This document shows, in pieces, positions 2,226-56,852 of a stretch of 56,852 nucleotides of DNA. The notes beneath the pieces are model-generated. The model ran no database searches and was not told the DNA's origin. It saw only the letters and a list, made by a program, of their open reading frames with translations. The position numbers and the translations under genes were made by a program. This stretch comes from Clostridia bacterium (lineage in GTDB: Bacteria > Bacillota > Clostridia > UMGS1883 > UMGS1540), in assembly GCA_045531355.1 (NCBI GenBank), contig JAZSDW010000028.1, positions 1-56,852 of the forward strand, given 5' to 3'. Positions within the stretch are counted from its first letter, which is position 1, and each line of letters begins with the position of its first letter.

Positions 2226-3686
2226 TTAGCTATAGAATAATGGCTCTGGGCGGCCTTCAATGCGGGCACACCAGACGGGGCGTTTTTCGCCGGGCTGCGT
2301 GTCCTCGGTATAGCTTAAGAACAAATCTAAAATCCGGATTTGTTCTTCTTCGCCCTGGAGCTGCGCATACAGACCGTCGATGGCCTGCAGCATCGGAAGA
2401 TTTTCCAGCGGAGCGCCGGAGCCGGAGAAGCGACGCAGAAGGTGTCGGTATACAATGATGCGGCCGTTTTTCACGCGCATCTCTACACCATGCCGCATTT
2501 GCGGCGTGGAAATTGCAATCGGCGTGCCCTCGAAATAATAGTCCATCGTGAAGGTGTAATCCCCTGCCGCGTTTTCGACAAGGTCGGAAGAAATCAGGGC
2601 TTCAAACGGCTGGTCCGGCACAAGGCTTTTCCAGACGCTGGCGGCAAATTCGGCAGCGCCGTTTAAGGAATTATAAAGCGTTGCGGTGCCTTGCGCATCG
2701 GGCAGAATACCAACGCCCTTTTCCTCATCCACGGCATAAAATTCGACGAGACCGTCGGTGCCTACGCTGATGGAGCCGTAATTTTCAACAAAATGCTCTT
2801 TGCCGTCCGTGCCGGTGTGGTGGTTGACGCCGCGCTCGCGATAGCCAAAAACCGAAAGGAGCGCTTCCATATCAGAAGAGCCGGCAATTGGATTTTCACC
2901 GACGATGGCAACGCTACGGCTGGTGCGCGGAGAAATCAGAAGGAGTGGATCCATAACAACCTTCTGGCTTACGCCGCCGCCGATGCCCACTTGACTATCG
3001 TGCAGGTTAAGTTCAAACGCAAAGGAATAATTTTCCGATTCCGCTAAAGCGGAGATACGGTCATAAAGCTCGTTTTTATACGGATAATTGATGTGATATT
3101 TCGTAATGATACCGGTCTGGGCATCGCGCACATACAGAAGGACATCCTGCCCCTGTGCCTCAATCGGTGTTAAAATCAGCTCTCGCAGTGCTGCTTTGTC
3201 AGCTTCAAGCCATGTATATTTCGCACCCGTTACCTCTGCAAAAAGGCGGGGAGAAAACGCGGTGGAATACGAAATATAGATAGATTTGGAGTCGAGCAGT
3301 TCATCATTTCGCAAAACACCGTACCATTCCGACTCAGGCACCTCATTTTTCAAAAACACCAGACTTTCGTCCCGGAGAACGGTGGTAAAAAAATTGCTGA
3401 TTGCGTCATAATACGCCGCGTAGGACGCATCGCTGTTATAATAGACGCTGCGGAATTCGCCGTTCGTAACCACAAGCTTCTGCGGTTTTGCGAGGTTTGC
3501 CATAGGGCTGACATACGGCTGCTCTTTCTTGAAAATTTTTGAAAAAAAAGTGCGCTCCGGAAGGGTCGCGAAAAAATCGTACCCGCGAGGCCAAACGCCA
3601 TTTCCGAACCACACCGTTGCGGCCAGCGCCGTGGCGCTGCAGATAAGCAAGATCAAAATACAAGTTTTCAGCTTTTCTTTCTTCAT
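2226..3686 (-). CDS. Membrane-anchored extracytoplasmic protein (486 aa); YycH-like architecture, tentative
   Basis: N-terminal TM segment CILILLICSATALAATVWF followed by a roughly 450-aa soluble domain. No motif that I can name with certainty. Confidence 0.35.
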   Translation of the reverse strand: MKKEKLKTCILILLICSATALAATVWFGNGVWPRGYDFFATLPERTFFSKIFKKEQPYVSPMANLAKPQKLVVTNGEFRSVYYNSDASYAAYYDAISNFFTTVLRDESLVFLKNEVPESEWYGVLRNDELLDSKSIYISYSTAFSPRLFAEVTGAKYTWLEADKAALRELILTPIEAQGQDVLLYVRDAQTGIITKYHINYPYKNELYDRISALAESENYSFAFELNLHDSQVGIGGGVSQKVVMDPLLLISPRTSRSVAIVGENPIAGSSDMEALLSVFGYRERGVNHHTGTDGKEHFVENYGSISVGTDGLVEFYAVDEEKGVGILPDAQGTATLYNSLNGAAEFAASVWKSLVPDQPFEALISSDLVENAAGDYTFTMDYYFEGTPIAISTPQMRHGVEMRVKNGRIIVYRHLLRRFSGSGAPLENLPMLQAIDGLYAQLQGEEEQIRILDLFLSYTEDTQPGEKRPVWCARIEGRPEPLFYS

Positions 3687-3701
3687 ACCGATTGCCGCCG
3701 A

Positions 3702-4181
3702 TTACCAGCCGCCGAACATGGCGCGGAAATTTGCCGCAAAGCCACGAATACTGTCTAAGAGGCTCTGATCTAAAAGCGTGATATCCAGCCGCACAAGCTG
3801 ATAATTTCCTTCGCCGAGCTCAGCACGGAGAAGGAGCGCGTTTGTTTCCTTAGCAAGATCCACTTCCTGCAAATAAATGCCGCCGGCATTTACATATTTT
3901 ACGAGCGGATTTCCATAGCCGTCCCGCTTCAGGCGGAACACACCGCTTGTGGCATCGTAGCTGTAAAGCGCAACCTCCGCTCCGCTTACACAAACGGCAG
4001 AAAGTGTGTAATTCTGTTTTGTGGTAGAAGAAACGGAGGTTTCCGGCTTCTTCACAGTCATAAGGCCGGAGGCTGTGCCACCGTCATAAGCGCTGACTTC
4101 TTCCGGCGCAGCCAGACAACTAAGGCTGGAGAGGCCGAAAAGAACGGCGCAAAGTATGCAAATAAAAACCTTCTTTTTCAT
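3702..4181 (-). CDS. Secreted protein of unknown function (159 aa)
   Basis: Signal peptide MKKKVFICILCAVLFGLSSLSCLA, and the ORF is the only long frame in this span. Confidence 0.6.
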   Translation of the reverse strand: MKKKVFICILCAVLFGLSSLSCLAAPEEVSAYDGGTASGLMTVKKPETSVSSTTKQNYTLSAVCVSGAEVALYSYDATSGVFRLKRDGYGNPLVKYVNAGGIYLQEVDLAKETNALLLRAELGEGNYQLVRLDITLLDQSLLDSIRGFAANFRAMFGGW

Positions 4182-5671: not shown

Positions 5672-5882
5672 TTCGATTCCTCCTTTGCTTCTTATTTGCA
5701 AGTGTACCATATTTTATAGAAATTGTCAAGTCCAAACGCGGGCGGGAAAAGGGGAAGAAAAATAAAAAATTTTAGAAAATATATAGGCAATCTCCTTTTT
5801 CTGTGATATAATACAGTTTATAGTATATACCCGGGGGAAGTTCTCGGCCAAGGCCGAAATTAAAACGAAAGAGGAGAAGAAA

Positions 5883-7511
5883 ATGCTTTCAGATATTGAA
5901 ATCGCCCTGGCGGCGAAAATGAAACCTATTTCGGAGATTGCAGAGGAGCTCGGCGTTCGGCCGGAGGAGCTGGAGCCGTACGGGCATTATAAGGCCAAGC
6001 TTTCCCCCGCGCTCTGGGACAGAATTCGAGAAAGGGAAGACGGCAAGCTCGTGCTTGTAACCGCCATTAACCCCACACCCGCGGGTGAAGGGAAAACGAC
6101 GATATCGGTTGGCCTTGCCCAGGCGCTTTGCCGCCGCGGCAAAAAGGCGATTGCGGCCCTGCGGGAGCCGTCACTCGGCCCGGTGATGGGAATTAAAGGC
6201 GGCGCCGCCGGCGGTGGATATGCACAGGTTGTGCCAATGGAGGACATCAATCTCCATTTTACCGGCGATATGCACGCCATAACGGCTGCCAACAACCTCC
6301 TTTCCGCGATGATCGATAACCATATCCAGCAGGGGAATGCCCTTGGGATTGACCCGCGGCGTATCGTTTTCCGCCGGGTGCTTGATATGAACGACCGGGC
6401 GCTTCGCCATGTTACCGTCGGTCTCGGCGGGCCGATGGACGGCGTGCCGCGTGAGGACGGGTTTATGATTACCGTAGCAAGCGAAGTCATGGCCATTTTG
6501 TGCCTCTCCTCGGATTTTGCCGATATGAAAGAGCGGCTCGGGAAAATTGTGGCGTGCTATACCTACGATAAAAAGCCGGTCACAGCGGCCGATCTCGGGG
6601 CGCAGGGCGCAATGGCAGTGCTTCTAAAAGATGCGATAAAGCCAAATCTTGTGCAGACGCTTGAAAATACGCCCTGTATTCTGCACGGCGGCCCGTTTGC
6701 CAATATTGCGCACGGATGCAACAGCATTCTTGCCACGCGCTATGCCTTAAAGCTCGGCGAAATCTGTGTAACCGAGGCAGGCTTCGGTGCAGACCTCGGC
6801 GCCGAAAAGTTTCTGGATATTAAATGCCGTCTTGGCGGCCTTAAGCCCGATGCGATTGTTCTTGTGGCAACACTTCGTGCGCTTCGCTACCATGCGCGGG
6901 AGGATAAATTCGAAAACCTCGGCAAGCACATTGAAAACATGCAAAGCTATGGCGTCCCCGTTTTGGTTGCCGTAAACCGCTTTGCGGACGATACGGACGC
7001 CGAAATCAAAGAACTTTGCGAATACTGTGCGGAAAAAGGCGCGGCGTGCGCGCCGGCCGAGGTGTTCGCAAAAGGTGGCGCGGGCGGCGAAGCACTGTGC
7101 GAAAAGCTTCTTGACATTCTCGAAAATGAGCCGGCAGACTTTTCCGTCCTTTATCCGGACGAAATGCCGCTCCGCGAGAAAATTGAAACGATTGCCGAAA
7201 AAATTTACGGCGCTTCGGGCGTGGACTTTACGCCGGCGGCGCTGAAAAAGCTTTCGGAATATGAAGAGGAAGGCTATGGACAGTATCCGGTCTGCATGGC
7301 AAAAACGCAGTATTCCCTTTCGGACAATCCGAAGCTTTTAGGGCGCCCGCGGGATTTCCGTATCACGGTGCGCGAGGTCAAGATTTCTGCCGGCGCCGGT
7401 TTTGTTGTCGCGCTTACCGGCGAGATTATGACAATGCCGGGGCTTCCGAAGGTGCCGGCGGCCGAGAAAATTGATATAGACAAAAACGGCGTAATAACAG
7501 GCCTTTTCTAG
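5883..7511 (+). CDS. fhs: Formate--tetrahydrofolate ligase
   Basis: Full-length FTHFS-like sequence with nucleotide-binding [13 protein letters not shown] is GAGGAG. An extended -10 (TGaTATAAT) lies at 5804-5812. Confidence 0.93.
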
Positions 7512-13185: not shown

Positions 13186-14688
13186 ATGAGAAAGCTATGG
13201 TTTTTGTTGGTGCTCAGTTGTCTTTTTCCGCTGGGGGCTTCCGCGGCCACGGCAACGGTGTTTGATGCAGCGCCGGTCTTTACCGATAACATGGTGTTGC
13301 AAGCCGACCGGGAAATCGTCATTTATGGCACTTCGCCCGAGGAGGGCGCGGCGCTAACTGTTTTTCTAGAAGAAGAGAGGCAAGAGGTCACGGTGGAAGA
13401 AGGGCGCTGGGAAGCGCGTTTTGCGGCGCGGCCGGCCGGTGGCGAGCCGTTTGCCATCCAGATTGTAGGTAGTGGCGAGGGCGAGCATATTTTTATTGAA
13501 AATGTAACAGTAGGCGATGTGTGGCTTGTTTTAGGGCAATCGAATGTGGAGTTTTCCGCAACGGCAATCCCCGACTGGGACGCGCGATGCTATCAGCTTC
13601 CCAAAAATGCCCGGCTTCTGACCTTTACGAGCGCCGACCTTGCCGCAACCCCAAAAGGTGCGCGCAGCCGCACCTGGCGGCCGATGACCTGGCTTTCGGC
13701 GGCGCAAGCGAGCGCACTCGGCGTTCTTCTCTGCGATGAGATTTCCCTTTCCACGGGCTTTGAAAGGCCACAAGGGCTGATTTCCGCCGGCTTTCGCGGG
13801 CAGGAGCTTTCGGCGTTTTTGCCGCCGGCGCTTGCCGAGGGAATGGAAACAGGGGCAAAGGAGACAAGCCGGATTTACGAGGCCGTTTTGGCGGACATCG
13901 ACCGGTTCCCTATCCGGGGACTTGTCTGGTATCAGGGCGAGGCCAACGGCGCGTATTATAAGGAATATATAGAAAAATTTTCGGCATTTATCCGCGAGTG
14001 GCGCAAAAAAGCCGGTCATTTTCCGGTGTATGTCGTAGAGCTTGCACCCTGCTTTCCCGGCGAGGAGGCGGAAAGGCAATATCTCGATTTCGGCACAGTG
14101 CGCGGCGTTATGGGCACGCTTCCTTTATTTCTCGAGGACACATGGATATGCCCGGCGAGCGACCTTTTTTCCGACCGCGCGTATGTAAACAGTCTGCACC
14201 CGCCGAATAAAACAGCGCTTTCCTACCGGGTGCTGGGTGCGATATTAGAAAAGAGCTACGGGATTGGAAATGCCACCGCGCCGCAAATAGAAAGTATTGC
14301 GTATGGCGAAGCGGAAAACGAGGTACACCTTGCGTTTTCCATGCCGTTATATTTTAAGGAAACGCCCCGCGGCTTTTCCGGCATTGACGAAAGCTGGGAA
14401 GAGGCCGAGCTTTTATCTGTTTCGGTTGAAGGCAACGCGGTGCGCCTTACTTTTGACCGCGAAATCTGCATTGTGCGCTACGGCGCGCGGGCGGACGATG
14501 TGCATGGGGAATCGCTTTCCCTTTGCGGCGAAAACGGGCAGATTCTGCCCCAGCTTTGGTATATGCTTCGCGAGCCGAGCGGGAATAAAATAAGCGCGCT
14601 TGCACGCAGAATGCTTTGGCCCCTTTTCCTTTTTGCTCTACTCGGCGGCGCGGGGCTTTGGTGGATACGAAAGAAAAAGAAAGGATGA
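13186..14688 (+). CDS. Sialate O-acetylesterase-like (SASA/DUF303, SGNH-type) hydrolase with signal peptide and C-terminal TM anchor
   Basis: GQSNVEF and VWYQGEANG motifs. Signal peptide LVLSCLFPLGASA. C-terminal LWPLFLFALLGGAGLWWIRKKKK. Confidence 0.6.
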   Translation: MRKLWFLLVLSCLFPLGASAATATVFDAAPVFTDNMVLQADREIVIYGTSPEEGAALTVFLEEERQEVTVEEGRWEARFAARPAGGEPFAIQIVGSGEGEHIFIENVTVGDVWLVLGQSNVEFSATAIPDWDARCYQLPKNARLLTFTSADLAATPKGARSRTWRPMTWLSAAQASALGVLLCDEISLSTGFERPQGLISAGFRGQELSAFLPPALAEGMETGAKETSRIYEAVLADIDRFPIRGLVWYQGEANGAYYKEYIEKFSAFIREWRKKAGHFPVYVVELAPCFPGEEAERQYLDFGTVRGVMGTLPLFLEDTWICPASDLFSDRAYVNSLHPPNKTALSYRVLGAILEKSYGIGNATAPQIESIAYGEAENEVHLAFSMPLYFKETPRGFSGIDESWEEAELLSVSVEGNAVRLTFDREICIVRYGARADDVHGESLSLCGENGQILPQLWYMLREPSGNKISALARRMLWPLFLFALLGGAGLWWIRKKKKG

Positions 14689-17649: not shown

Positions 17650-17843
17650 ATATGTAATCTTTTAGAAAAGGAAGTGAGCTTGTGGACAGTTATCCCGGTC
17701 GATTATGTATGACTTTTTGGGCAGTTTACAGGCTTTTTCTGTGCTGCCCTATCCGGGTAGCAATCGGATAAAAGAAGGGCAGAAGCCTTTTTCTGTCCAG
17801 TCTTTTTCTTTTGCTGCCCAAATACAGAAAGGGTGGTTTTTTT
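17650..17843 (+). promoter_or_regulatory. Structured 5' leader of mgtE with terminator/antiterminator alternatives
   Basis: gggcag (17719-24), ctgccc (17744-49), gggcag (17777-82) and ctgccc (17814-19). The candidate terminator gggcagaa / ttctgtcc (17777-17798) is followed by tctttttctttt. Confidence 0.45.
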
Positions 17844-19175
17844 ATGCTCGAAACAATTTTAGACCTTTTATCGTCCCGCCGCTACGGCGCACTCCGTACG
17901 CTTTTGGCATCTGCTAACATCGTTGATATTGCGGAGCTTTTTGACGAACTTGACGAAAACGATTCGCTGCTTGTTTTTCGGCTTTTGCCAAAAGAAATGG
18001 CTGCCGATGTTTTCAGCTACATGGAAAAAGATGCGCAAAAGCACATCGTGGAAAGCATTACAGACCGCGAGCTTTCCGGCATCATTGAAAACCTTTTCCT
18101 CGACGATGCGGTTGACTTTATTGAAGAAATGCCGGCAAGCGTTGTCAAGCGCGTGCTCAAAAATGCAAATGGGGAGAAGCGGGCGCTCCTTAACCGGTTT
18201 TTAAATTATGCCGAGGATTCTGCCGGAAGTCTTATGACGATTGAGTTCGTCGGTTTGAAAAAGGAAATGACTGTGCAGGATGCGTTTGATACCATCCGGC
18301 GCACAGGGCCGGATAAAGAAACGATTTACACCTGCTATGTCATGAACGAAAACCGGAAGCTGGAAGGAATTGTTTCCGTTAAAACCTTGCTTTTAAGCGA
18401 TAAAGACGCCAAAATTGCGTCCATTATGGATACGCAGGTCATTTTCGTTTCGACCGACGATGATAAAGAAGAAATTACCGCACTGTTCCAGAAATACGAT
18501 TTTCTTTCGCTCCCGGTTGTCGACAGGGAACGGCGGCTCGTCGGCATTATCACAATTGACGATGCTGTAGAAGCGTTGCAGCAGGAAAACACGGAGGACT
18601 TTGAGCTGATGGCGGCGCTCACGCCTTCGGAAGAACCATACCTTAAGACCGGCGTTTTCGGGCATGCCCGCCGGCGCGTGTTCTGGCTTCTGCTTCTCAT
18701 GCTTTCCTCGGCGCTTTCCGGCACGATTCTCACCACTTTTGAGGATGCGTTTAAGGTCATGCCGATTTTAGTTTCGTTTATCCCGATGCTGATGAACACG
18801 GGCGGTAACTGTGGTTCGCAGGCCTCCACGCTGATTATCCGCGGTCTTTCTCTTGGCGAAATTTCGGGGCGGGATACGCTTCGCGTCTGGTGGTGCGAGG
18901 CACGCGTGGCCGTGCTTTGCGGTATTGTTCTTTCCGCCGTAAACCTTCTGCGCATCTGGATTTTTGAAGGGGACCTCCTTTTAGGCCTCGTTGTAAGCGT
19001 CAGCCTTCTGGCAACCGTGGTGCTTGCAAAATCTGTTGGCTGTCTTTTGCCAATCGGTGCAAAGAAGCTTGGGATGGATCCCGCGATTATGGCATCGCCC
19101 ATTATTACAACGATTGTCGATATTTGCGCGCTGGCGCTGTATTTTACGGTGGCAAAGTTTATGCTGCACCTTTAG
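17844..19175 (+). CDS. mgtE: Magnesium transporter MgtE
   Basis: MgtE N-domain, CBS pair and TM domain with PMLMNTGGNCGSQAS. Start set at ATG 17844 (MLETILDLL), which follows AGAAAGGGTGG. Confidence 0.9.
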   Translation: MLETILDLLSSRRYGALRTLLASANIVDIAELFDELDENDSLLVFRLLPKEMAADVFSYMEKDAQKHIVESITDRELSGIIENLFLDDAVDFIEEMPASVVKRVLKNANGEKRALLNRFLNYAEDSAGSLMTIEFVGLKKEMTVQDAFDTIRRTGPDKETIYTCYVMNENRKLEGIVSVKTLLLSDKDAKIASIMDTQVIFVSTDDDKEEITALFQKYDFLSLPVVDRERRLVGIITIDDAVEALQQENTEDFELMAALTPSEEPYLKTGVFGHARRRVFWLLLLMLSSALSGTILTTFEDAFKVMPILVSFIPMLMNTGGNCGSQASTLIIRGLSLGEISGRDTLRVWWCEARVAVLCGIVLSAVNLLRIWIFEGDLLLGLVVSVSLLATVVLAKSVGCLLPIGAKKLGMDPAIMASPIITTIVDICALALYFTVAKFMLHL

Positions 19176-52707: not shown

Positions 52708-54366
52708 ATGGATATTTCAGCATTGCAAAAAGCAAGGTATGCGTATGTGCCGAAACTTCCGGAAATGCTGCAGAGCGGTATCGCCAGTATCAGCGTGCAG
52801 GAAGGGGCGGAAACGAAAAGCGTAGCCGATTGCGAAAAAATTCAGGCCCTGTTCCCGAACACCTACGGCAAGAAGGAAATCGTGTTTAAGAAGGGTACAA
52901 ACACCTCGCAGGCTAAAAAGCAGGTCGTCGGCGTCATTCTTTCCGGCGGACAGGCGCCGGGCGGGCACAATGTTATCTGCGGCCTTTATGATGCACTGAA
53001 GGCTACAAACCCTGAAAATGTTCTTTACGGCTTTAAGGGCGGCCCGAGCGGTCTGATTGAAGATGACTATCTGATTTTTGACGATGCGTATATCGATGCG
53101 TACAGAAATACGGGCGGTTTTGATATTATCGGTTCCGGCAGAACGAAGCTGGAGACAAACGAGCAGTTCGCGCTCGTGGCCGAGGTTTGCAAAAAGCACG
53201 GCATTACCGCTATCGTCATTATCGGCGGAGATGATTCGAATACCAACGCCGCCGTTTTGGCAGAATATTTTGCCGCACATGATGCGGGCGTGCAGGTTAT
53301 CGGTTGCCCGAAAACGATTGACGGCGACCTTAAAAACGAAGATATCGAATGCTCCTTCGGCTTTGATACGGCAACCAAGACCTACAGCGAGCTGATTGGT
53401 AATATCGAAAGAGACGCAAACTCCGCCAAAAAATACTGGCACTTTGTGAAGGTGATGGGCCGCTCGGCTTCCCATGTTGCGCTCGAATGTGCGCTGGAAA
53501 CGCAGCCGAACATCTGCCTTGTTTCGGAAGAAGTTGCCGCAAAGAAAATGTCCCTCTCCCAAATTGCAGACTATATCGCCGATGCGGTAGCCGCAAGATC
53601 GGCAAAAGGCATGAACTTCGGCGTTGCCATTATCCCGGAAGGCGTTGTGGAATTTGTGCCGGAATTTTCCGCACTGATTCAGGAAATCAACGAGCTTCTC
53701 GCCGGCAGCCGTGCGGACGAATTTAATGCGCTCCCCTCTTGGGACGAAAAATATGCGTTTATTGAAAAAGGGCTCTCGAAAGCCGCCATGGAAGTGTTCG
53801 CCATTTTGCCGCAGGGCATCCAGCAGCAGCTCTTCCTCGAAAGAGATCCGCACGGCAATGTGCAGGTTTCCCTGATTGAGTCGGAAAAGCTCTTCTCGGC
53901 GCTCGTTGCCGATAAGCTCGCCGCCAGAAAGCGCGCCGGCGCCTTTAGCGGCAAGTTCAGCCCGCTCCACCACTTCCTCGGCTACGAAGGCCGTTGCGCC
54001 TTCCCGTCGAACTTTGACGCGGACTATTGCTACTCCCTCGGCTACAACGCCTTTATGCTGATTCAGTACGGCTACAACGGCTACCTGTCGAAGATTTCCA
54101 ACCTGTCAAAGCCGGCCGCCGAATGGATTGCAGGCGGTATGCCGATTACGAAGATGATGAACATCGAAAGAAGACACGGCGAGGATAAGCCGGTTATCCG
54201 CAAAGCACTCGTAGAGCTTGACGGAAAGCCCTTCCGCTTCTTTGAAGCGCACCGCGACACCTGGGCAATCGAAACCTCGTATCTCTACCCGGGCGCAATT
54301 CAGTACTATGGTCCCAGCGAGGTTTGCGACCGTACGACGGTAACGCTCGCGCTCGAAAAAGAATAA
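52708..54366 (+). CDS. pfp: Diphosphate--fructose-6-phosphate 1-phosphotransferase (PPi-dependent PFK, long form)
   Basis: PFK motifs [17 protein letters not shown] and MGRSASH. The 552-aa length is typical of PFP. Confidence 0.88.
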
Positions 54367-54378
54367 AAAGCATAAACG

Positions 54379-54411
54379 AAAGGCCACCGATTCGGTGGCC
54401 TTTCTCTTTTT
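54379..54411. terminator. Bidirectional terminator between pfp and the cotJC remnant
   Basis: aaaggccaccg / cggtggccttt stem with T-runs on both strands. Confidence 0.75.
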
Positions 54412-54925
54412 ATCGCGAATACTTATAGCCCGGCAGGTACATTTTATTTTTCTCGCATTGGCCGTCCTGCACCCTTCGAAGCGCTTCGCCAAAGCGCTGG
54501 AAGTGTACGACCTCTCTTGCGCGCAGGAACTTGATAATGTCTGCGACATCCGGGTCGTCGCACATGCGGAGAATGTTGTCATAGGTCGCACGCGCCTTTT
54601 GCTCGGCTGCGAGATCCTCTGTCAAATCCGCAATCGGGTCGCCCTTGCTCTGCAAATACGCGGCCGTAAACGGTACGCCCGCGGCCGAGGCGGGATATAC
54701 AGCAACATTATGGTCCACATAATAATCGCCAAAGCCCTTCTCCCTTGCCTCCTCAGGCGAAAGGTTCCTCGTCAGCTGATGCACAATCGTGCCAATCATT
54801 TCGAGATGCGCCAATTCCTCCGTGCCAATATCGTTTAAAATGCCTTTTGTCACATCGTCCGGCATCGAAAACCGCTGGGACAAATACCGCAGCGAAGCAC
54901 CCAGCTCGCCGTCCGGTCCGCACAA
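54410..54925 (-). pseudogene. cotJC: 5'-truncated CotJC / manganese-catalase-family spore coat gene
   Basis: Similarity starts at GPDGELGASLRYLSQRF. About 30 N-terminal residues typical of the family are missing, along with any cotJA/cotJB. The tracked start is a TTG, and the upstream in-frame sequence is unrelated and A/T-rich. Confidence 0.6.
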
Positions 54926-54987
54926 TCGTAATTGTTTGAGTACTGTTAATAGCAGTTTTATGCTGCTGTTTTTTTATGCAAAGAAAT

Positions 54988-55025
54988 AGAAGTATTTTTT
55001 TCAAAGCTATTGACAAAATACTTCT
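54988..55025. promoter_or_regulatory. Perfect 11-bp inverted repeat bracketing the -35 of the island promoter (candidate operator)
   Basis: agaagtatttt (54988-98) and aaaatacttct (55015-25), separated by 16 bp. Confidence 0.5.
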
Positions 55026-55038
55026 GTGGGAGTATAAT
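55010..55038 (+). promoter_or_regulatory. Consensus sigma-A promoter of the island genes
   Basis: TTGACA, 17 nt, TATAAT. Confidence 0.7.
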
Positions 55039-55076
55039 GTAAGTGTGTAACTCCATGGAAGTACGGAGATGATGAA

Positions 55077-55754
55077 ATGAGTAAGTTTACTATATATCAC
55101 GGTTCGCCTGAAATTATTGAAAAACCACAGTTCGGCAAGGGTAAAACCTATAACGATTACGGCAGAGGTTTTTATTGCACAGAACATATTGAACTTGCAA
55201 AAGAATGGGCTTGTACCGAAGATGTAGACGGCTTTGTAAATAAATATGAGATTGATATGTCAAACCTTAAGGTTTTGAATCTTTCATCTGATGAATATAC
55301 CATTTTACATTGGCTTGCAATGCTGATGAAGTATAGAAAGGTTCGTTTATCTACTCCGGTTATGAAACGTGGTCGTGAATGGCTTATCGAACATTTTATG
55401 CCTGATACAGAAGGCTATGATGCGATTATCGGCTACCGTGCTGACGATTCTTACTTCTCCTTTGCAAGAGCATTTGTTAATAACGAAATTTCACTCAATC
55501 AGTTGTCTTATGCTATGCGACTTGGGAAACTTGGAGAGCAGGTTGTTTTAAAGAGCAAAAAGGCATTCGATGAGATTAAATTTGTGTCTTATGAAGTTTG
55601 CGACAACACAATCTATTATGCAAAGCGCAAAGCACGAGACGACGAAGCAAGAGAAGCATTTAATGCCGAACTTGAAAAAGAAGATTTAAACGGACTTTAT
55701 ATGAGAGATATTATTCGTGAGGAGGTAACCCCTGATGATGCGCGCTTACGATGA
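55077..55754 (+). CDS. DUF3990-like protein with H-Y-type ADP-ribosyltransferase-like N-terminal motifs
   Basis: IYHGS (His codon at 55098-100), then GRGFYCT 25 residues later. RBS is GGAGA. A/T-rich codon usage unlike the bulk of the window. Confidence 0.55.
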   Translation: MSKFTIYHGSPEIIEKPQFGKGKTYNDYGRGFYCTEHIELAKEWACTEDVDGFVNKYEIDMSNLKVLNLSSDEYTILHWLAMLMKYRKVRLSTPVMKRGREWLIEHFMPDTEGYDAIIGYRADDSYFSFARAFVNNEISLNQLSYAMRLGKLGEQVVLKSKKAFDEIKFVSYEVCDNTIYYAKRKARDDEAREAFNAELEKEDLNGLYMRDIIREEVTPDDARLR

Positions 55755-56376
55755 GCAGTATTTAGACGATGCAATGCGAAATCTTGGCGAAGCTGCAGAT
55801 TATGCAGTCAATGCTTGCAACATGACACTCCAGAATTTTTTTGATTTGTTTGTTACAACGGGATTTGCTACACAGTTTGGAAATGGTGTACCTAAAATCA
55901 TTTCGGGATTGTCTGGAACAGAGCTTATTCACGAAATCATTGTAAAGGCAGGTATTGAACAAGACCTTCCGGAAGTGCAGACAGAATATGATTGTTCCCC
56001 TGAATATTGGTGCGGATGGATTGTAGCTTACTATCAATGGCACACGGGCAGAACATTTAAAGATATTTTTCAGAATGTATCTGCAAAAGAAATTGAAAAG
56101 CTTTATCCAACACTTCACGAAGCACATGAAGATAAATTTGTTGATGTTGTAAATTCAATAATCGAAAGAAAAACTACAACAACTAAATTGCAGGAACTTC
56201 GCAAAAACATTGGTTACTCTCAAAGAGAACTTGCCGAAAAGTCAGGAGTTAACTTAAGAACTTTGCAACAGTATGAACTGAAGGCAAAGGATATAAATAA
56301 AGCTGCAACAACAACTCTTCTTGCACTCTCAAAAACACTTGGATGCAAGATAGAAGATTTGTTGGAGAATGTGTGA
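55735..56376 (+). CDS. Fusion of an uncharacterised (DUF3791-like) N-domain with a C-terminal XRE-family HTH
   Basis: C-terminus LQELRKNIGYSQRELAEKSGVNLRTLQQYE is a classic HTH_3 sequence. Overlaps the upstream gene by 20 nt. Confidence 0.6.
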   Translation: MMRAYDEQYLDDAMRNLGEAADYAVNACNMTLQNFFDLFVTTGFATQFGNGVPKIISGLSGTELIHEIIVKAGIEQDLPEVQTEYDCSPEYWCGWIVAYYQWHTGRTFKDIFQNVSAKEIEKLYPTLHEAHEDKFVDVVNSIIERKTTTTKLQELRKNIGYSQRELAEKSGVNLRTLQQYELKAKDINKAATTTLLALSKTLGCKIEDLLENV

Positions 56377-56393: not shown

Positions 56394-56852
56394 ATGGCTG
56401 ATATTAAAAAGTCGCAGGAACGTGAAGAATTGTTCCGTACCATATATAAAATAGCAACCGACCTTGTTCACGCAGGACATGTTGCAGAATGGGATTTTAA
56501 ATCATATGTTCTTGGAACAATGTTTTATCGCTACATTTCCGAGAATTTTACTGCATATATAAATGCCGGAGAGCATGCGGCAGGAAATAAAGATTTTGAT
56601 TATGCAAAAATGTCGGACAGCGATGCAGAAACAGCAAGAGAAGGTCTTATTCAGGAAAAAGGATTTTTCATTCTTCCTTCAGAGCTTTTCTGCAATGTAC
56701 GAGAAAGAGCTGATAAGGATGAGAACTTAAACGAAACTTTGGAGCAGGTTTTTGCTCACATTGAAAGTAGTGCAGCAAGTGGAGATGCAGAGAACGATTT
56801 TGCAGGCCTTTTTGATGATTTTGATGTAAATGCAAAAGCTATCGGGGAAACT
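56394..56852 (+). CDS. hsdM: Type I restriction-modification system methyltransferase subunit HsdM (3' end outside window)
   Basis: Open frame from ATG 56394 (after GGAGGAAAG) to the window edge, not in the ORF track. HsdM N-terminal domain sequence LFRTIYKIATDL...KSYVLGTMFYRYISENF. Confidence 0.75.
   Translation, partial: MADIKKSQEREELFRTIYKIATDLVHAGHVAEWDFKSYVLGTMFYRYISENFTAYINAGEHAAGNKDFDYAKMSDSDAETAREGLIQEKGFFILPSELFCNVRERADKDENLNETLEQVFAHIESSAASGDAENDFAGLFDDFDVNAKAIGET

Follow-up and report, generated by a model that had tools for sequence, protein, structure and literature searches.

A putative self-regulated DUF3990 gene pair of the toxin-antitoxin type, apparently carried by a mobile element, upstream of type I restriction-modification genes

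RESULTS

Organization of the locus

The window, the whole stretch of 56,852 nucleotides analyzed here, carries a pair of overlapping genes close to its end. Gene 1 (55077 to 55754, forward strand) encodes a DUF3990 protein of 225 amino acids and is preceded by the ribosome binding site (RBS) GGAG at 55065 to 55068. Gene 2 (55735 to 56376, forward strand; 213 amino acids) encodes an N-terminal domain (N-domain) joined to an XRE-family helix-turn-helix (HTH) and has its own RBS, GAGGAGG, at 55719 to 55725, within gene 1. The two open reading frames (ORFs) overlap by 20 nt (55735 to 55754), and 17 nt separate the gene 2 stop codon from the ATG (56394) of hsdM, the methylase gene of a type I restriction-modification (R-M) system. 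The 5′ part of hsdM occupies 56394 to 56852 on the forward strand, and its ORF, which runs past the window end, matched HsdM_N in Pfam (2e-12) and the NCBIfam hsdM model TIGR00497 (3.8e-41). These ORFs, the overlap, and the gap agree with the coordinates given in an earlier first-pass annotation of this DNA. An exact-sequence look-up of the gene 1 and gene 2 proteins found no identical entry.

Upstream of the pair lies a 5′-truncated Mn-catalase (cotJC-like) gene on the reverse strand (54413 to 54942; Pfam Mn_catalase), which ends at an island junction. The 10-mer TGTTTGAGTA at 54933 to 54942 is a likely recombination-site arm on the attL side. Between the island edge and the cassette promoter, a consensus scan found a terminator-like hairpin on the forward strand (54948 to 54970), with a 9-bp stem followed by a T-run, that would shield the cassette from read-through. 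The promoter itself (55010 to 55038, forward strand) is of the sigma-70 type, with TTGACA and TATAAT separated by 17 nt and 12 of 12 consensus matches. Operator 1, the 16-nt palindrome TACTTCTGTGGGAGTA at 55019 to 55034, occupies the −35/−10 spacer and overlaps the −10 element; operator 2, the palindrome TAACTCCATGGAAGTA at 55048 to 55063, lies 9 nt past the −10 element and 13 nt before the ATG of gene 1. The interval between gene 2 and hsdM contained neither a terminator nor a strong promoter in the scan. Because there is no terminator before hsdM, the cassette promoter probably drives the type I R-M genes, and hsdM would be cargo that is probably co-transcribed from it.

Gene 1 likely encodes an ADP-ribosyltransferase-fold enzyme

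Residues 5 to 169 of gene 1 matched Pfam DUF3990 (PF13151) over profile positions 2 to 152 of 152 (159.6 bits, cut-off 32.2; E = 5.9e-47), so that the profile search proposed in the first-pass annotation places gene 1 in this family, above the gathering threshold. The annotation had also stated that DUF3990 belongs to the ADP-ribosyl clan, and Pfam agrees (PMC7955679). In an AlphaFold model of gene 1 (pLDDT 88.7), a helical extension forms the C terminus from about residue 177 to 225. The top 50 matches of this model in the PDB were all H-Y-E ADP-ribosyltransferases (ARTs), among them PARP1/2/4, diphtheria-like toxins, and ExoA, with marginal scores (E = 1.8e-3 to 8e-2; TM about 0.3). Among the viral structures of BFVD, the matches were ART-PolyVal and PARP-like domains (best E = 4.7e-7; TM 0.52 to 0.57).

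Comparisons at the sequence level gave less. The gene 1 profile found no ART among all PDB chain sequences, returning prion-protein noise only (E ≥ 0.018), and sequence-level ART support therefore rests on the Pfam clan. An hhalign comparison of a 94-sequence DUF3990 alignment with a PARP1 catalytic fragment was not significant (E = 0.11). Its register agreed with expectation, as Y33 and W44 of gene 1 stood opposite two tyrosines 11 residues apart, which we take to be Y896 and Y907 of PARP1. The ART-like fold proposed in the first-pass annotation was thus borne out to the extent that only H-Y-E ARTs appeared among the top 50 PDB matches, but the scores were marginal and the sequence-profile tests were not significant. 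Together, the model and the clan assignment suggest that gene 1 likely encodes an enzyme with an ART fold, from the H-Y-E lineage.

Conservation was assessed over 108 cluster representatives with 36 to 55% identity to gene 1. Residues conserved in at least 90% of them were H8, G9, G31, F32, Y33, T35, E43, W44, R121, A122, D123, and D124, with H8 found in 105, Y33 in 107, and W44 in 106 of the 108. The H and Y motifs quoted in the first-pass annotation are therefore present and conserved family-wide in this set. In the model, H8 lies in strand 4–10, Y33 in strand 32–35, and W44 (Y+11) in helix 38–45. This is the arrangement that marks H-Y-E ARTs, with a histidine ending strand 1, a tyrosine in strand 2, and a second aromatic residue about 11 positions further on.

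No conserved glutamate was found in the DUF3990 alignments at the ART catalytic position, the start of strand 5. The acidic stretch GYRADDSYF had been suggested to supply the third catalytic position. Its RADD segment (R121-A-D123-D124), which follows strand 116–120, is conserved, but D115, at the start of that strand and present in 108/108 representatives, is the sole residue of its region invariant in both family alignments. The alignments favor D115, or else D123 or D124, over a glutamate as the third catalytic residue. An H-Y-D variant of the active site is possible in gene 1, and an aspartate at the catalytic position could mean a different chemistry. E154, in GEQVVL, was considered as a catalytic glutamate and rejected; it is not conserved and is replaced by methionine in a relative, L086.

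Gene 2 joins a helical domain without a Pfam family to an XRE HTH

Residues 152 to 209 of gene 2 matched HTH_3 (E = 1.1e-9), and no Pfam match was found over residues 1 to 150, in keeping with the earlier description of an N-domain of no known family fused to an XRE HTH. The N-domain (residues 1 to 146; 55735 to 56172) is all-alpha in a model with a pLDDT of 90.4 and had no fold match in the PDB, where matches were confined to the C-terminal HTH (about residues 151 to 209; 56185 to 56361). Structural matches of the HTH included CapH, C.AhdI, C.BclI, SinR, P22 c2, and HipB (RMSD 1.1 to 2.2 Å), and the HTH is a putative autorepressor DNA-binding domain. W92, Q101, H128, and E129 are invariant in the N-domain, which we regard as a putative gene-1-binding, neutralizing domain; the invariant H128-E129 pair could, however, point to an enzymatic function in place of simple antitoxin binding. 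Searches for an internal duplication within the N-domain, and for similarity between it and the small downstream protein of three-gene systems, gave nothing significant.

DUF3791 proteins are the usual partners of DUF3990 proteins. With the threshold relaxed to E ≤ 5, neither gene 2 nor any of 30 relatives matched DUF3791, and hhalign comparison of gene 2 with two DUF3791 proteins was not significant. Residues 85 to 139 of gene 2 matched the partner protein of L086 (7e-5), which in turn matched DUF3791 at 0.0083, below the cut-off, so that the DUF3791 link to gene 2 is no more than a weak transitive hint. Some relatives, such as L086, carry the HTH as a fusion with the DUF3990 protein, and an HTH therefore does not by itself identify the antitoxin.

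The two genes form an autonomous cassette with an occasional link to R-M genes

Gene 1 homologues fell into 2459 clusters at 50% identity (E ≤ 1e-3). A gene 2 homologue lay immediately 3′ of gene 1 in 79 of 80 species-level loci from many phyla, and the sole exception was a locus cut by a contig end. Across these loci the genes overlapped mostly by 20 or 23 nt, and there was no conserved third gene. A single RNA contig covered both genes, and similarity to RNA contigs was lost at 56376, the end of gene 2. The gene pair is an autonomous cassette, and a chance pair of ORFs is excluded. Like type II toxin-antitoxin (TA) genes, the two are adjacent, co-oriented, coupled, and inherited as a unit. 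The proposal that the pair forms one regulated module gains from both this pairing and the palindromic operators in its own promoter.

The first-pass annotation had further viewed the pair as attached to the type I R-M system. Neighboring genes, annotated with Pfam and PADLOC, did not bear this out as a rule. A co-oriented gene within 60 nt downstream of gene 2 was present in 18/70 loci, and about 3 of 10 tightly coupled downstream genes scanned in other species were defense genes (GajA, HsdR, and SIR2). Six close relatives (84 to 91% identity) had no R-M gene downstream, and the HsdM N-terminal fragment, used as an R-M probe, gave no matches in the 80 loci. Most neighbors were unrelated or came from mobile elements, and many copies of the cassette sat among housekeeping genes. 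The best reading is that the R-M link of the cassette is occasional and not defining. Enrichment near defense loci, a separate prediction of the annotation, was indicated by a rough count: among the top 25 families listed per gene set, genes adjacent to the cassette were about 4-fold richer in defense-model matches than genes 7 to 10 positions away (approximately 25/270 near versus 3/140 far; Fisher p of about 0.006, or 0.04 under stricter counting). Phage genomes contributed little, since gene 1 had no PHROGs family and its homologues were found in 6 of 50,697 phage records, on uncultured phage contigs.

Operators co-vary with the gene 2 recognition helix

A promoter matching the consensus at 10 or more of 12 positions lay upstream of gene 1 in 53/68 related loci. 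Over these 53 loci, a mean of 5.26 of the 7 arm pairs of operator 1 were complementary, compared with 1.93 ± 0.16 in shuffled sequences. In most loci operator 2 was identical to operator 1 of the same locus at 11 to 15 of 16 positions, and operators matched better within their own locus than between loci (permutation p < 2e-4). The operators stayed palindromic while their sequence shifted between lineages, and the half-site class (TACTTC/GAAGTA and TATCAC/GTGATA are two such classes) changed jointly with the HTH recognition helix (gene 2 residues 172 to 179). Since operators and recognition helix change together, autoregulation is indicated, and from these comparisons gene 2 appears to repress the cassette's own promoter, as in the autoregulation that characterizes type II TA modules. 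Part of this protein-DNA co-variation could reflect co-inheritance of neighboring DNA.

The truncated cotJC gene marks the insertion site of a mobile element

The Mn_catalase match of the truncated gene (1.4e-45) begins at profile position 29 of 284, and at the cotJC junction GC content falls from approximately 0.53 to 0.37. In a related locus, L081, the catalase fragment stops at the same point and the junction carries the same 10-mer; in another, L092, the 10-mer is inverted and lies between a serine recombinase gene and the cotJC 5′ end. The 10-mer alone is not statistically significant. The truncated cotJC gene is the mark of the insertion site of a mobile element carrying the cassette, which lies at the end of a low-GC island, apparently a serine-recombinase element, at truncated cotJC.

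L081 shares roughly 1.4 kb of the cassette at approximately 93% DNA identity, in a block that begins at the promoter and ends with the stop codon of gene 2; beyond it, L081 carries different, restriction-like cargo. In the closest relative, the same 17-nt junction is followed by other methylase and Mrr-type genes. Cassettes were also found at the edges of integrative elements and on plasmids. The cargo directly after gene 2 is a type I R-M system here and methylase/Mrr genes, Gabija, HsdR, or SIR2 elsewhere.

DISCUSSION

Relation to known systems

Both proteins matched a phage-defense candidate of PADLOC, gene 1 over its full length with PDC-M42A (PDLC04641; 5.8e-46) and gene 2 residues 2 to 136 with PDC-M42B (PDLC04642; 4.6e-8), and the earlier suggestion of a defense module is strengthened to that degree. 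PDC-M42, PDC-M10, and PDC-M13 share the DUF3990 family FAM_00403, and PDC systems were nominated because copies lie inside BREX, DISARM, or type I R-M loci (Payne et al., bioRxiv 10.1101/2024.01.29.577857), a context similar to that of the pair described here. PDC-M42 is defined as FAM_00403>>FAM_03189>>FAM_00360, whereas the present cassette has no conserved third gene over 80 loci and is followed by hsdM. One PDC-M42A model has about 67 extra N-terminal positions, the layout of the HTH-DUF3990 fusion in L086, while in the present pair the B-type partner bears the HTH. PDC-M42 is a candidate only and defines no mechanism. The DUF3990 pair is thus already a PADLOC candidate, and the promoter/operator architecture is the main new result.

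Several characterized systems resemble the cassette in part. RES-Xre modules (ParST, MbcTA) likewise combine an NAD-using toxin of the ART clan with an XRE-type HTH antitoxin, and RES and DUF3990 belong to the same Pfam clan (PMC7955679). Gene 2 gave only weak matches, all below cut-offs, to the Xre_ParS and Xre-like-HTH antitoxin models; the toxin there is RES and not DUF3990, the antitoxin-binding domain differs, and here the toxin gene comes first. An upstream toxin gene is found in MqsRA-type modules and in the gene order of higBA and hicAB. MqsRA-type antitoxins bind the toxin through an N-terminal domain and, through a C-terminal XRE HTH, palindromes in their own promoter. The gene 2 HTH matched MqsA models far below cut-offs (TIGR03830 at 8e-6; PF15731 in 7/31 relatives), but MqsR is an RNase and not an ART, and the zinc-binding N-domain of MqsA is unrelated to the all-alpha domain here. 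DarTG is a two-gene TA system with an ART-fold toxin and a demonstrated anti-phage role. DarT and DUF3990 share a Pfam clan, but DarT is another family, and DarG, a macrodomain hydrolase, removes the modification, whereas gene 2 has no macrodomain.

A toxin-antitoxin model and its alternatives

Our preferred reading, held with moderate confidence, is a two-gene module of the type II TA kind that is mobile and regulates itself. Domain identities, an ART-like fold class, strict pairing, cassette boundaries, and operator architecture with its co-variation come from in silico results; toxicity, NAD chemistry, neutralization by binding, a role in defense or addiction, and hsdM co-transcription are inferred, as follows. 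Gene 1, probably with an H-Y-D active site, would most likely act with NAD+ on an essential component of the cell, by ADP-ribosylation or another form of attack. Gene 2, translationally coupled to gene 1, would bind and neutralize the gene 1 protein with its all-alpha N-domain and, through its HTH, repress the operon at two operators, one over the −35/−10 spacer and the −10 element and the other over the transcript start. If the gene 2 protein were lost or titrated, by loss of the element or by phage shut-off of host expression, the enzyme would be freed and the promoter de-repressed, and the freed module would stabilize the mobile element, abort infection, or both. The cassette would form the recombinase-distal end of the element inserted at cotJC, its promoter probably driving the type I R-M genes too.

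Three other explanations were weighed against this model. The pair might be non-toxic, with the DUF3990 protein reversibly modifying its partner or a small molecule, or having lost transferase activity, in a signal-responsive unit that does not kill. The catalytic glutamate is absent from gene 1, the invariant H-E of the gene 2 N-domain might be catalytic, and the HTH is found on either partner, all of which agree with such a unit. Nevertheless, the H, Y, and D residues are nearly invariant in a very large family, as expected of an active enzyme, the plasmid and mobile-island distribution is typical of addiction or defense modules, and the same domain occupies the C-terminal toxin position of T6SS Rhs effectors (PMC4524185, PMC10763514); we consider this explanation unlikely. 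An offensive function, which we think quite unlikely, would have the gene 1 ART modify host or competitor factors for anti-defense or takeover, in the manner of the ART-PolyVal or Alt/Mod enzymes of phages and conjugative elements, with gene 2 as a transcriptional regulator only. It draws on the ART-PolyVal domains that were the best fold matches in the viral library, on the placement of cassettes at integrative-element edges and on plasmids, and on the homologues in a few uncultured phage contigs. However, gene 1 has no PHROGs family and few matches in phage records, many copies sit among housekeeping genes, and a strict overlap with a conserved partner domain under tight self-repression fits a product that needs restraint.

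The most improbable of the explanations, in our judgment, is that the cassette is a C-protein-like controller of R-M genes, in which the gene 2 HTH times hsdMSR expression upon entry into a new host and gene 1 is accessory. At this locus the arrangement is suggestive, as only 17 nt, holding neither a terminator nor a strong promoter, separate gene 2 from hsdM, and the closest relative keeps that junction before its methylase and Mrr-type genes. The HTH also superimposes on C.AhdI and C.BclI (RMSD 1.2 to 1.5 Å over approximately 60 residues), and the pair of palindromic operators is laid out like C-boxes. Beyond this locus the resemblance fades: the gene downstream is not conserved over the 80 species-level loci, only 18/70 loci have a co-oriented gene within 60 nt and 3/10 of those scanned are defense genes, and the six close relatives lack R-M genes downstream. 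C proteins are single, small, stand-alone HTH proteins that are consistently linked to R-M genes and unpaired with a conserved enzyme, whereas gene 2 is 213 amino acids long, carries an extra 146-amino-acid domain, and is always paired with DUF3990 and rarely with R-M genes.

Implications

Returning to the TA model, no experimental study of any DUF3990 protein was found in the literature searched. Should gene 1 turn out to encode an NAD-using toxin that an autorepressing partner keeps in check, DUF3990 would be a large new ART toxin family for TA and phage-defense biology, and the module would help explain how mobile elements of anaerobes stabilize themselves and express their restriction cargo. 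A bolder extension, which we regard as a speculation with little chance of being correct in full, is that DUF3990 proteins are an H-Y-D branch of NAD-dependent toxins and the cassette a portable "promoter plus sentinel" unit. One repressor would both restrain an abortive-infection or addiction toxin and drive defense cargo placed after gene 2, coupling establishment, expression, and retention of the island, and repressor specificity would have diversified into several non-cross-reacting operator classes. The operator classes observed here and their matching recognition helices offer a testable protein-DNA code and orthogonal repressor-operator pairs. DUF3990 cassettes abound in gut and rumen bacteria, and a count in rumen genomes gave 3324 instances of the related PDC-M13 layout (PMC13356809).

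An autonomous two-gene cassette

The open reading frames of gene 1 (55077-55754, + strand; 225 aa) and gene 2 (55735-56376, +; 213 aa) overlap by 20 nt, and hsdM starts after a 17-nt gap, as the first-pass annotation had described. The 5′ part of hsdM (from 56394, +) was recognized by HsdM_N (2e-12) and NCBIfam hsdM (3.8e-41), and the gene extends past the window end. The GAGGAGG ribosome-binding site of gene 2 lies within the 3′ end of gene 1. A Pfam search clearly identified gene 1 as DUF3990 (E 5.9e-47). Gene 2 likewise has the composition originally proposed, with an XRE-type HTH at residues 152-209 (1.1e-9) fused to an N-domain (residues 1-150) that matched no Pfam family. GC content falls from ~0.53 to ~0.37 at about 54950, which places the pair and hsdM in foreign DNA.

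Scanning a single genome from each species yielded at least 595 loci, and 80 with 51-94% identity were retained. Their hosts, all gut or rumen organisms, belong to Clostridia, Bacilli, Erysipelotrichales, Actinobacteria, Spirochaetes, Lentisphaerae, Bacteroidales, Betaproteobacteria and Elusimicrobia. A gene 2 homologue directly follows gene 1 in 79 loci, mostly with an overlap of 20 or 23 nt, and the remaining locus ends at a contig edge. Clustering of all neighbors of the 80 loci revealed no third conserved gene. The closest relative, locus L081, shares 96% protein identity and ~93% DNA identity across the cassette; DNA similarity runs from just upstream of the −35 box to the gene 2 stop codon, beyond which only the opening 11 nt of the following gene match. 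Bovine metatranscriptome contigs of 88-97% identity, in which DNA carry-over in the libraries is possible, span 55065-56376, and in one 4.1-kb contig that includes both genes, similarity stops at 56376. By these boundaries, the mobile unit is ~1.4 kb and comprises the promoter, gene 1 and gene 2. Judged by sequence, the gene pair is an autonomous cassette.

Predicted autoregulation by gene 2

The main new result is a set of promoter features that points to autoregulation of the cassette by gene 2. A perfect TTGACA-17-TATAAT promoter lies 5′ of gene 1 (55010-55038, +). Its spacer is occupied by a 16-nt palindrome, TACTTCTGTGGGAGTA (putative operator 1; 55019-55034), which overlaps the −10 box. 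A related palindrome, TAACTCCATGGAAGTA (putative operator 2; 55048-55063), is located 9 nt past the −10 box and 13 nt 5′ of the start codon. This arrangement is repeated in relatives of many phyla. At 53 loci with a good promoter, operator 1 had a mean of 5.26 complementary arm pairs out of 7, versus 1.93 ± 0.16 (maximum, 2.49) in 2000 shuffles. Downstream sequence from the same locus was a better match for operator 1 than downstream sequence from other loci (permutation p < 2e-4), and the two operators were identical at 11-15 of 16 positions in most loci.

Half-site sequence varies by lineage with symmetry retained, and follows HTH residues 172-179: NLRTLQQ occurs with TACTTC/GAAGTA, TLRMIQQ with GACTCT/AGAGA, SLRSIQM with TATCAC/GTGATA, and SIRNIQM with TGACAT/ATGATA. 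Shared ancestry adds to this co-variation because the DNA and the gene adjoin. Symmetric change in both arms and both operators is the pattern that a dimeric repressor would be expected to leave.

The gene 2 model is all-alpha (pLDDT 90.4). Structural matches (CapH, C.AhdI, C.BclI, SinR, P22 c2 and HipB) were confined to the last ~60 residues, and none was found for the N-domain. Residues W92, Q101 and H128-E129 (56008-56121) are invariant in this otherwise fast-evolving domain, and could form a catalytic site or a contact by which the active site of the partner is plugged.

Fold and candidate active site of gene 1

The AlphaFold model of gene 1, built from a 38-sequence alignment, was confident (pLDDT 88.7; pTM 0.83). 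All of its top 50 PDB matches were H-Y-E class ADP-ribosyltransferases (ARTs), namely PARP1/2/4, tankyrase, diphtheria toxin and a homologue, and exotoxin A, with weak scores (E 1.8e-3 to 8e-2; TM ~0.3). Among predicted viral structures, the best matches were ART-PolyVal and PARP-like (best E 4.7e-7; TM 0.52-0.57). The gene 1 profile gave only noise against PDB sequences. [quoted passage not shown] The evidence thus runs in the direction first proposed, toward an ART-like protein, with modest scores.

Conservation was assessed in 108 representatives (36-55% identity) taken from 2459 clusters with E ≤ 1e-3. The H and Y motifs picked out by the first-pass annotation are both conserved, as H8-G9 (end of strand 1) and G31-F32-Y33-x-T35 (strand 2). 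Also conserved are D27 and G29 in strand 2, E43-W44 in the helix that follows, R121-A-D123-D124, and Q155. D115, at the start of strand 116-120, is invariant (108/108). W44 lies 11 residues after Y33, and a second aromatic at +11 is the spacing in diphtheria toxin and PARP1. An hhalign comparison with a PARP1 fragment gave a sole local match, which fell in the Y33/W44 register and was not significant (E 0.11). With no conserved Glu in the alignment of 108 representatives, the third catalytic position would be an Asp, or else the chemistry differs. The candidates are D115, by topology, and D123/D124, which lie in the stretch GYRADDSYF previously suggested for this role.

A probable integrative element around the cassette

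An Mn-catalase (cotJC-like) gene (54413-54942, −) abuts the island and is missing the first ~28 profile positions. This 5′ truncation coincides exactly with the start of the low-GC island; L081 has a catalase fragment at 5687-5965. In locus L092, the cassette is nearly the same as here (95% identity for gene 2) and is followed by two small genes and a large serine recombinase, and then by the cotJC 5′ end (13364-13504), cotJB and cotJA. This suggests an integrative-element family targeting cotJC, a spore-coat operon gene. The 10-mer TGTTTGAGTA, not statistically significant on its own, occurs at the window junction (54933-54942) and the L081 junction (about 6060-6070) and is inverted at the L092 recombinase-side junction (13371-13380, −). 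Opposite orientation at the two end types is as expected for serine-recombinase attP arms. We read this as a serine-recombinase element targeting cotJC, with the cassette at the recombinase-distal end and variable cargo after gene 2: type I restriction-modification (R-M) here; DUF5655, large methylases and an Mrr-type nuclease in L081-83; and a 262-aa protein of no named family in L092.

At 3992-5965 of L081, the catalase fragment is flanked by a serine recombinase gene on the side away from the cassette-bearing element, a position at odds with one simple insertion that may reflect tandem or nested elements. The unrelated hsdM and L081 DUF5655 genes share the start ATGGCTGATAT (M-A-D-I; 56394-56404 in the window and 11477-11487 in L081), 17 nt past the gene 2 stop in both; this junction may be a recombination joint for cargo exchange behind the cassette. 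Around its cassette, L081 also carries further genes of defense type (270-2000 and 17769-18992), namely ASCH, Ham1p-like, SIR2_2 and SLFN/AlbA_2, and its element appears to be a defense island. In the window, a strong bidirectional terminator-like hairpin (54378-54404; 12-bp stem, 8 GC pairs) separates a PPi-phosphofructokinase-like gene (52708-54366) from the catalase gene.

Relation to known systems and to defense loci

PADLOC matched gene 1 to PDC-M42A (5.8e-46), and additionally to PDC-M10A and PDC-M13A/B, and gene 2 to PDC-M42B (4.6e-8). PDCs are phage defense candidates nominated by embedding in BREX, DISARM or type I R-M (bioRxiv 10.1101/2024.01.29.577857), and PDC-M13 is among the commonest PADLOC calls in rumen genomes (PMC13356809). 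The window cassette is a variant of the catalogued candidate, with the HTH on the partner and no third gene. No experiments on DUF3990 were found in the literature searched. The closest characterized analogues are RES-Xre and DarTG, toxin-antitoxin systems with an ART-clan toxin, as proposed for the cassette, and MqsRA, which has a cassette-like order, toxin gene first and an antitoxin with a C-terminal XRE HTH. On balance, the first-pass interpretation is supported in part, and we favor a mobile, self-repressed unit of toxin-antitoxin type with an ART-fold effector. Gene 1 would be toxic through NAD chemistry and gene 2 would neutralize it by binding; the cassette may act in defense, and hsdM may be co-transcribed with it.

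A role for the pair attached to the R-M system had also been proposed. Defense-type genes were ~4-fold commoner beside the pair than 7-10 genes away among the matches listed (roughly 25/270 versus 3/140; Fisher p ~0.006), and included Gabija, DRT reverse transcriptase, type I and type III restriction enzymes, AbiEi, PD-T4-6, SoFic, PDC-S01 and PDC-S09. A co-oriented gene begins within 60 nt downstream of gene 2 in 18 of 70 loci, and three of ten such genes scanned encode GajA, HsdR and a SIR2-like protein. Neighbors were very varied (124 Pfam families among 131 neighboring proteins, and 127 among 139). R-M was found downstream of the cassette in none of six close relatives, most of which have mobile-element surroundings (relaxase, recombinases, ParM-like protein, integrase, IS66). 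From gene content, the R-M link is real in this element and occasional with other defense cargo, and is not family-defining.

In distant plasmid relatives, the unit comprises three genes (DUF3791-DUF3990-small protein); one such unit adjoins the replication gene of a 17.5-kb Clostridium plasmid. Locus L086 has two DUF3990 pairs, separated by 3 kb on one contig. In the second, divergent pair (2595-3891), the DUF3990 protein itself bears the HTH, at its N-terminus, and a 149-aa partner that weakly resembles DUF3791 matches gene 2 residues 85-139; the DNA-binding domain can therefore belong to either partner. Locus L020 similarly has a second DUF3990 gene (238 aa) with a 142-aa partner without an HTH (2449-3586), and this pair shares the locus with a complete HTH-bearing pair.
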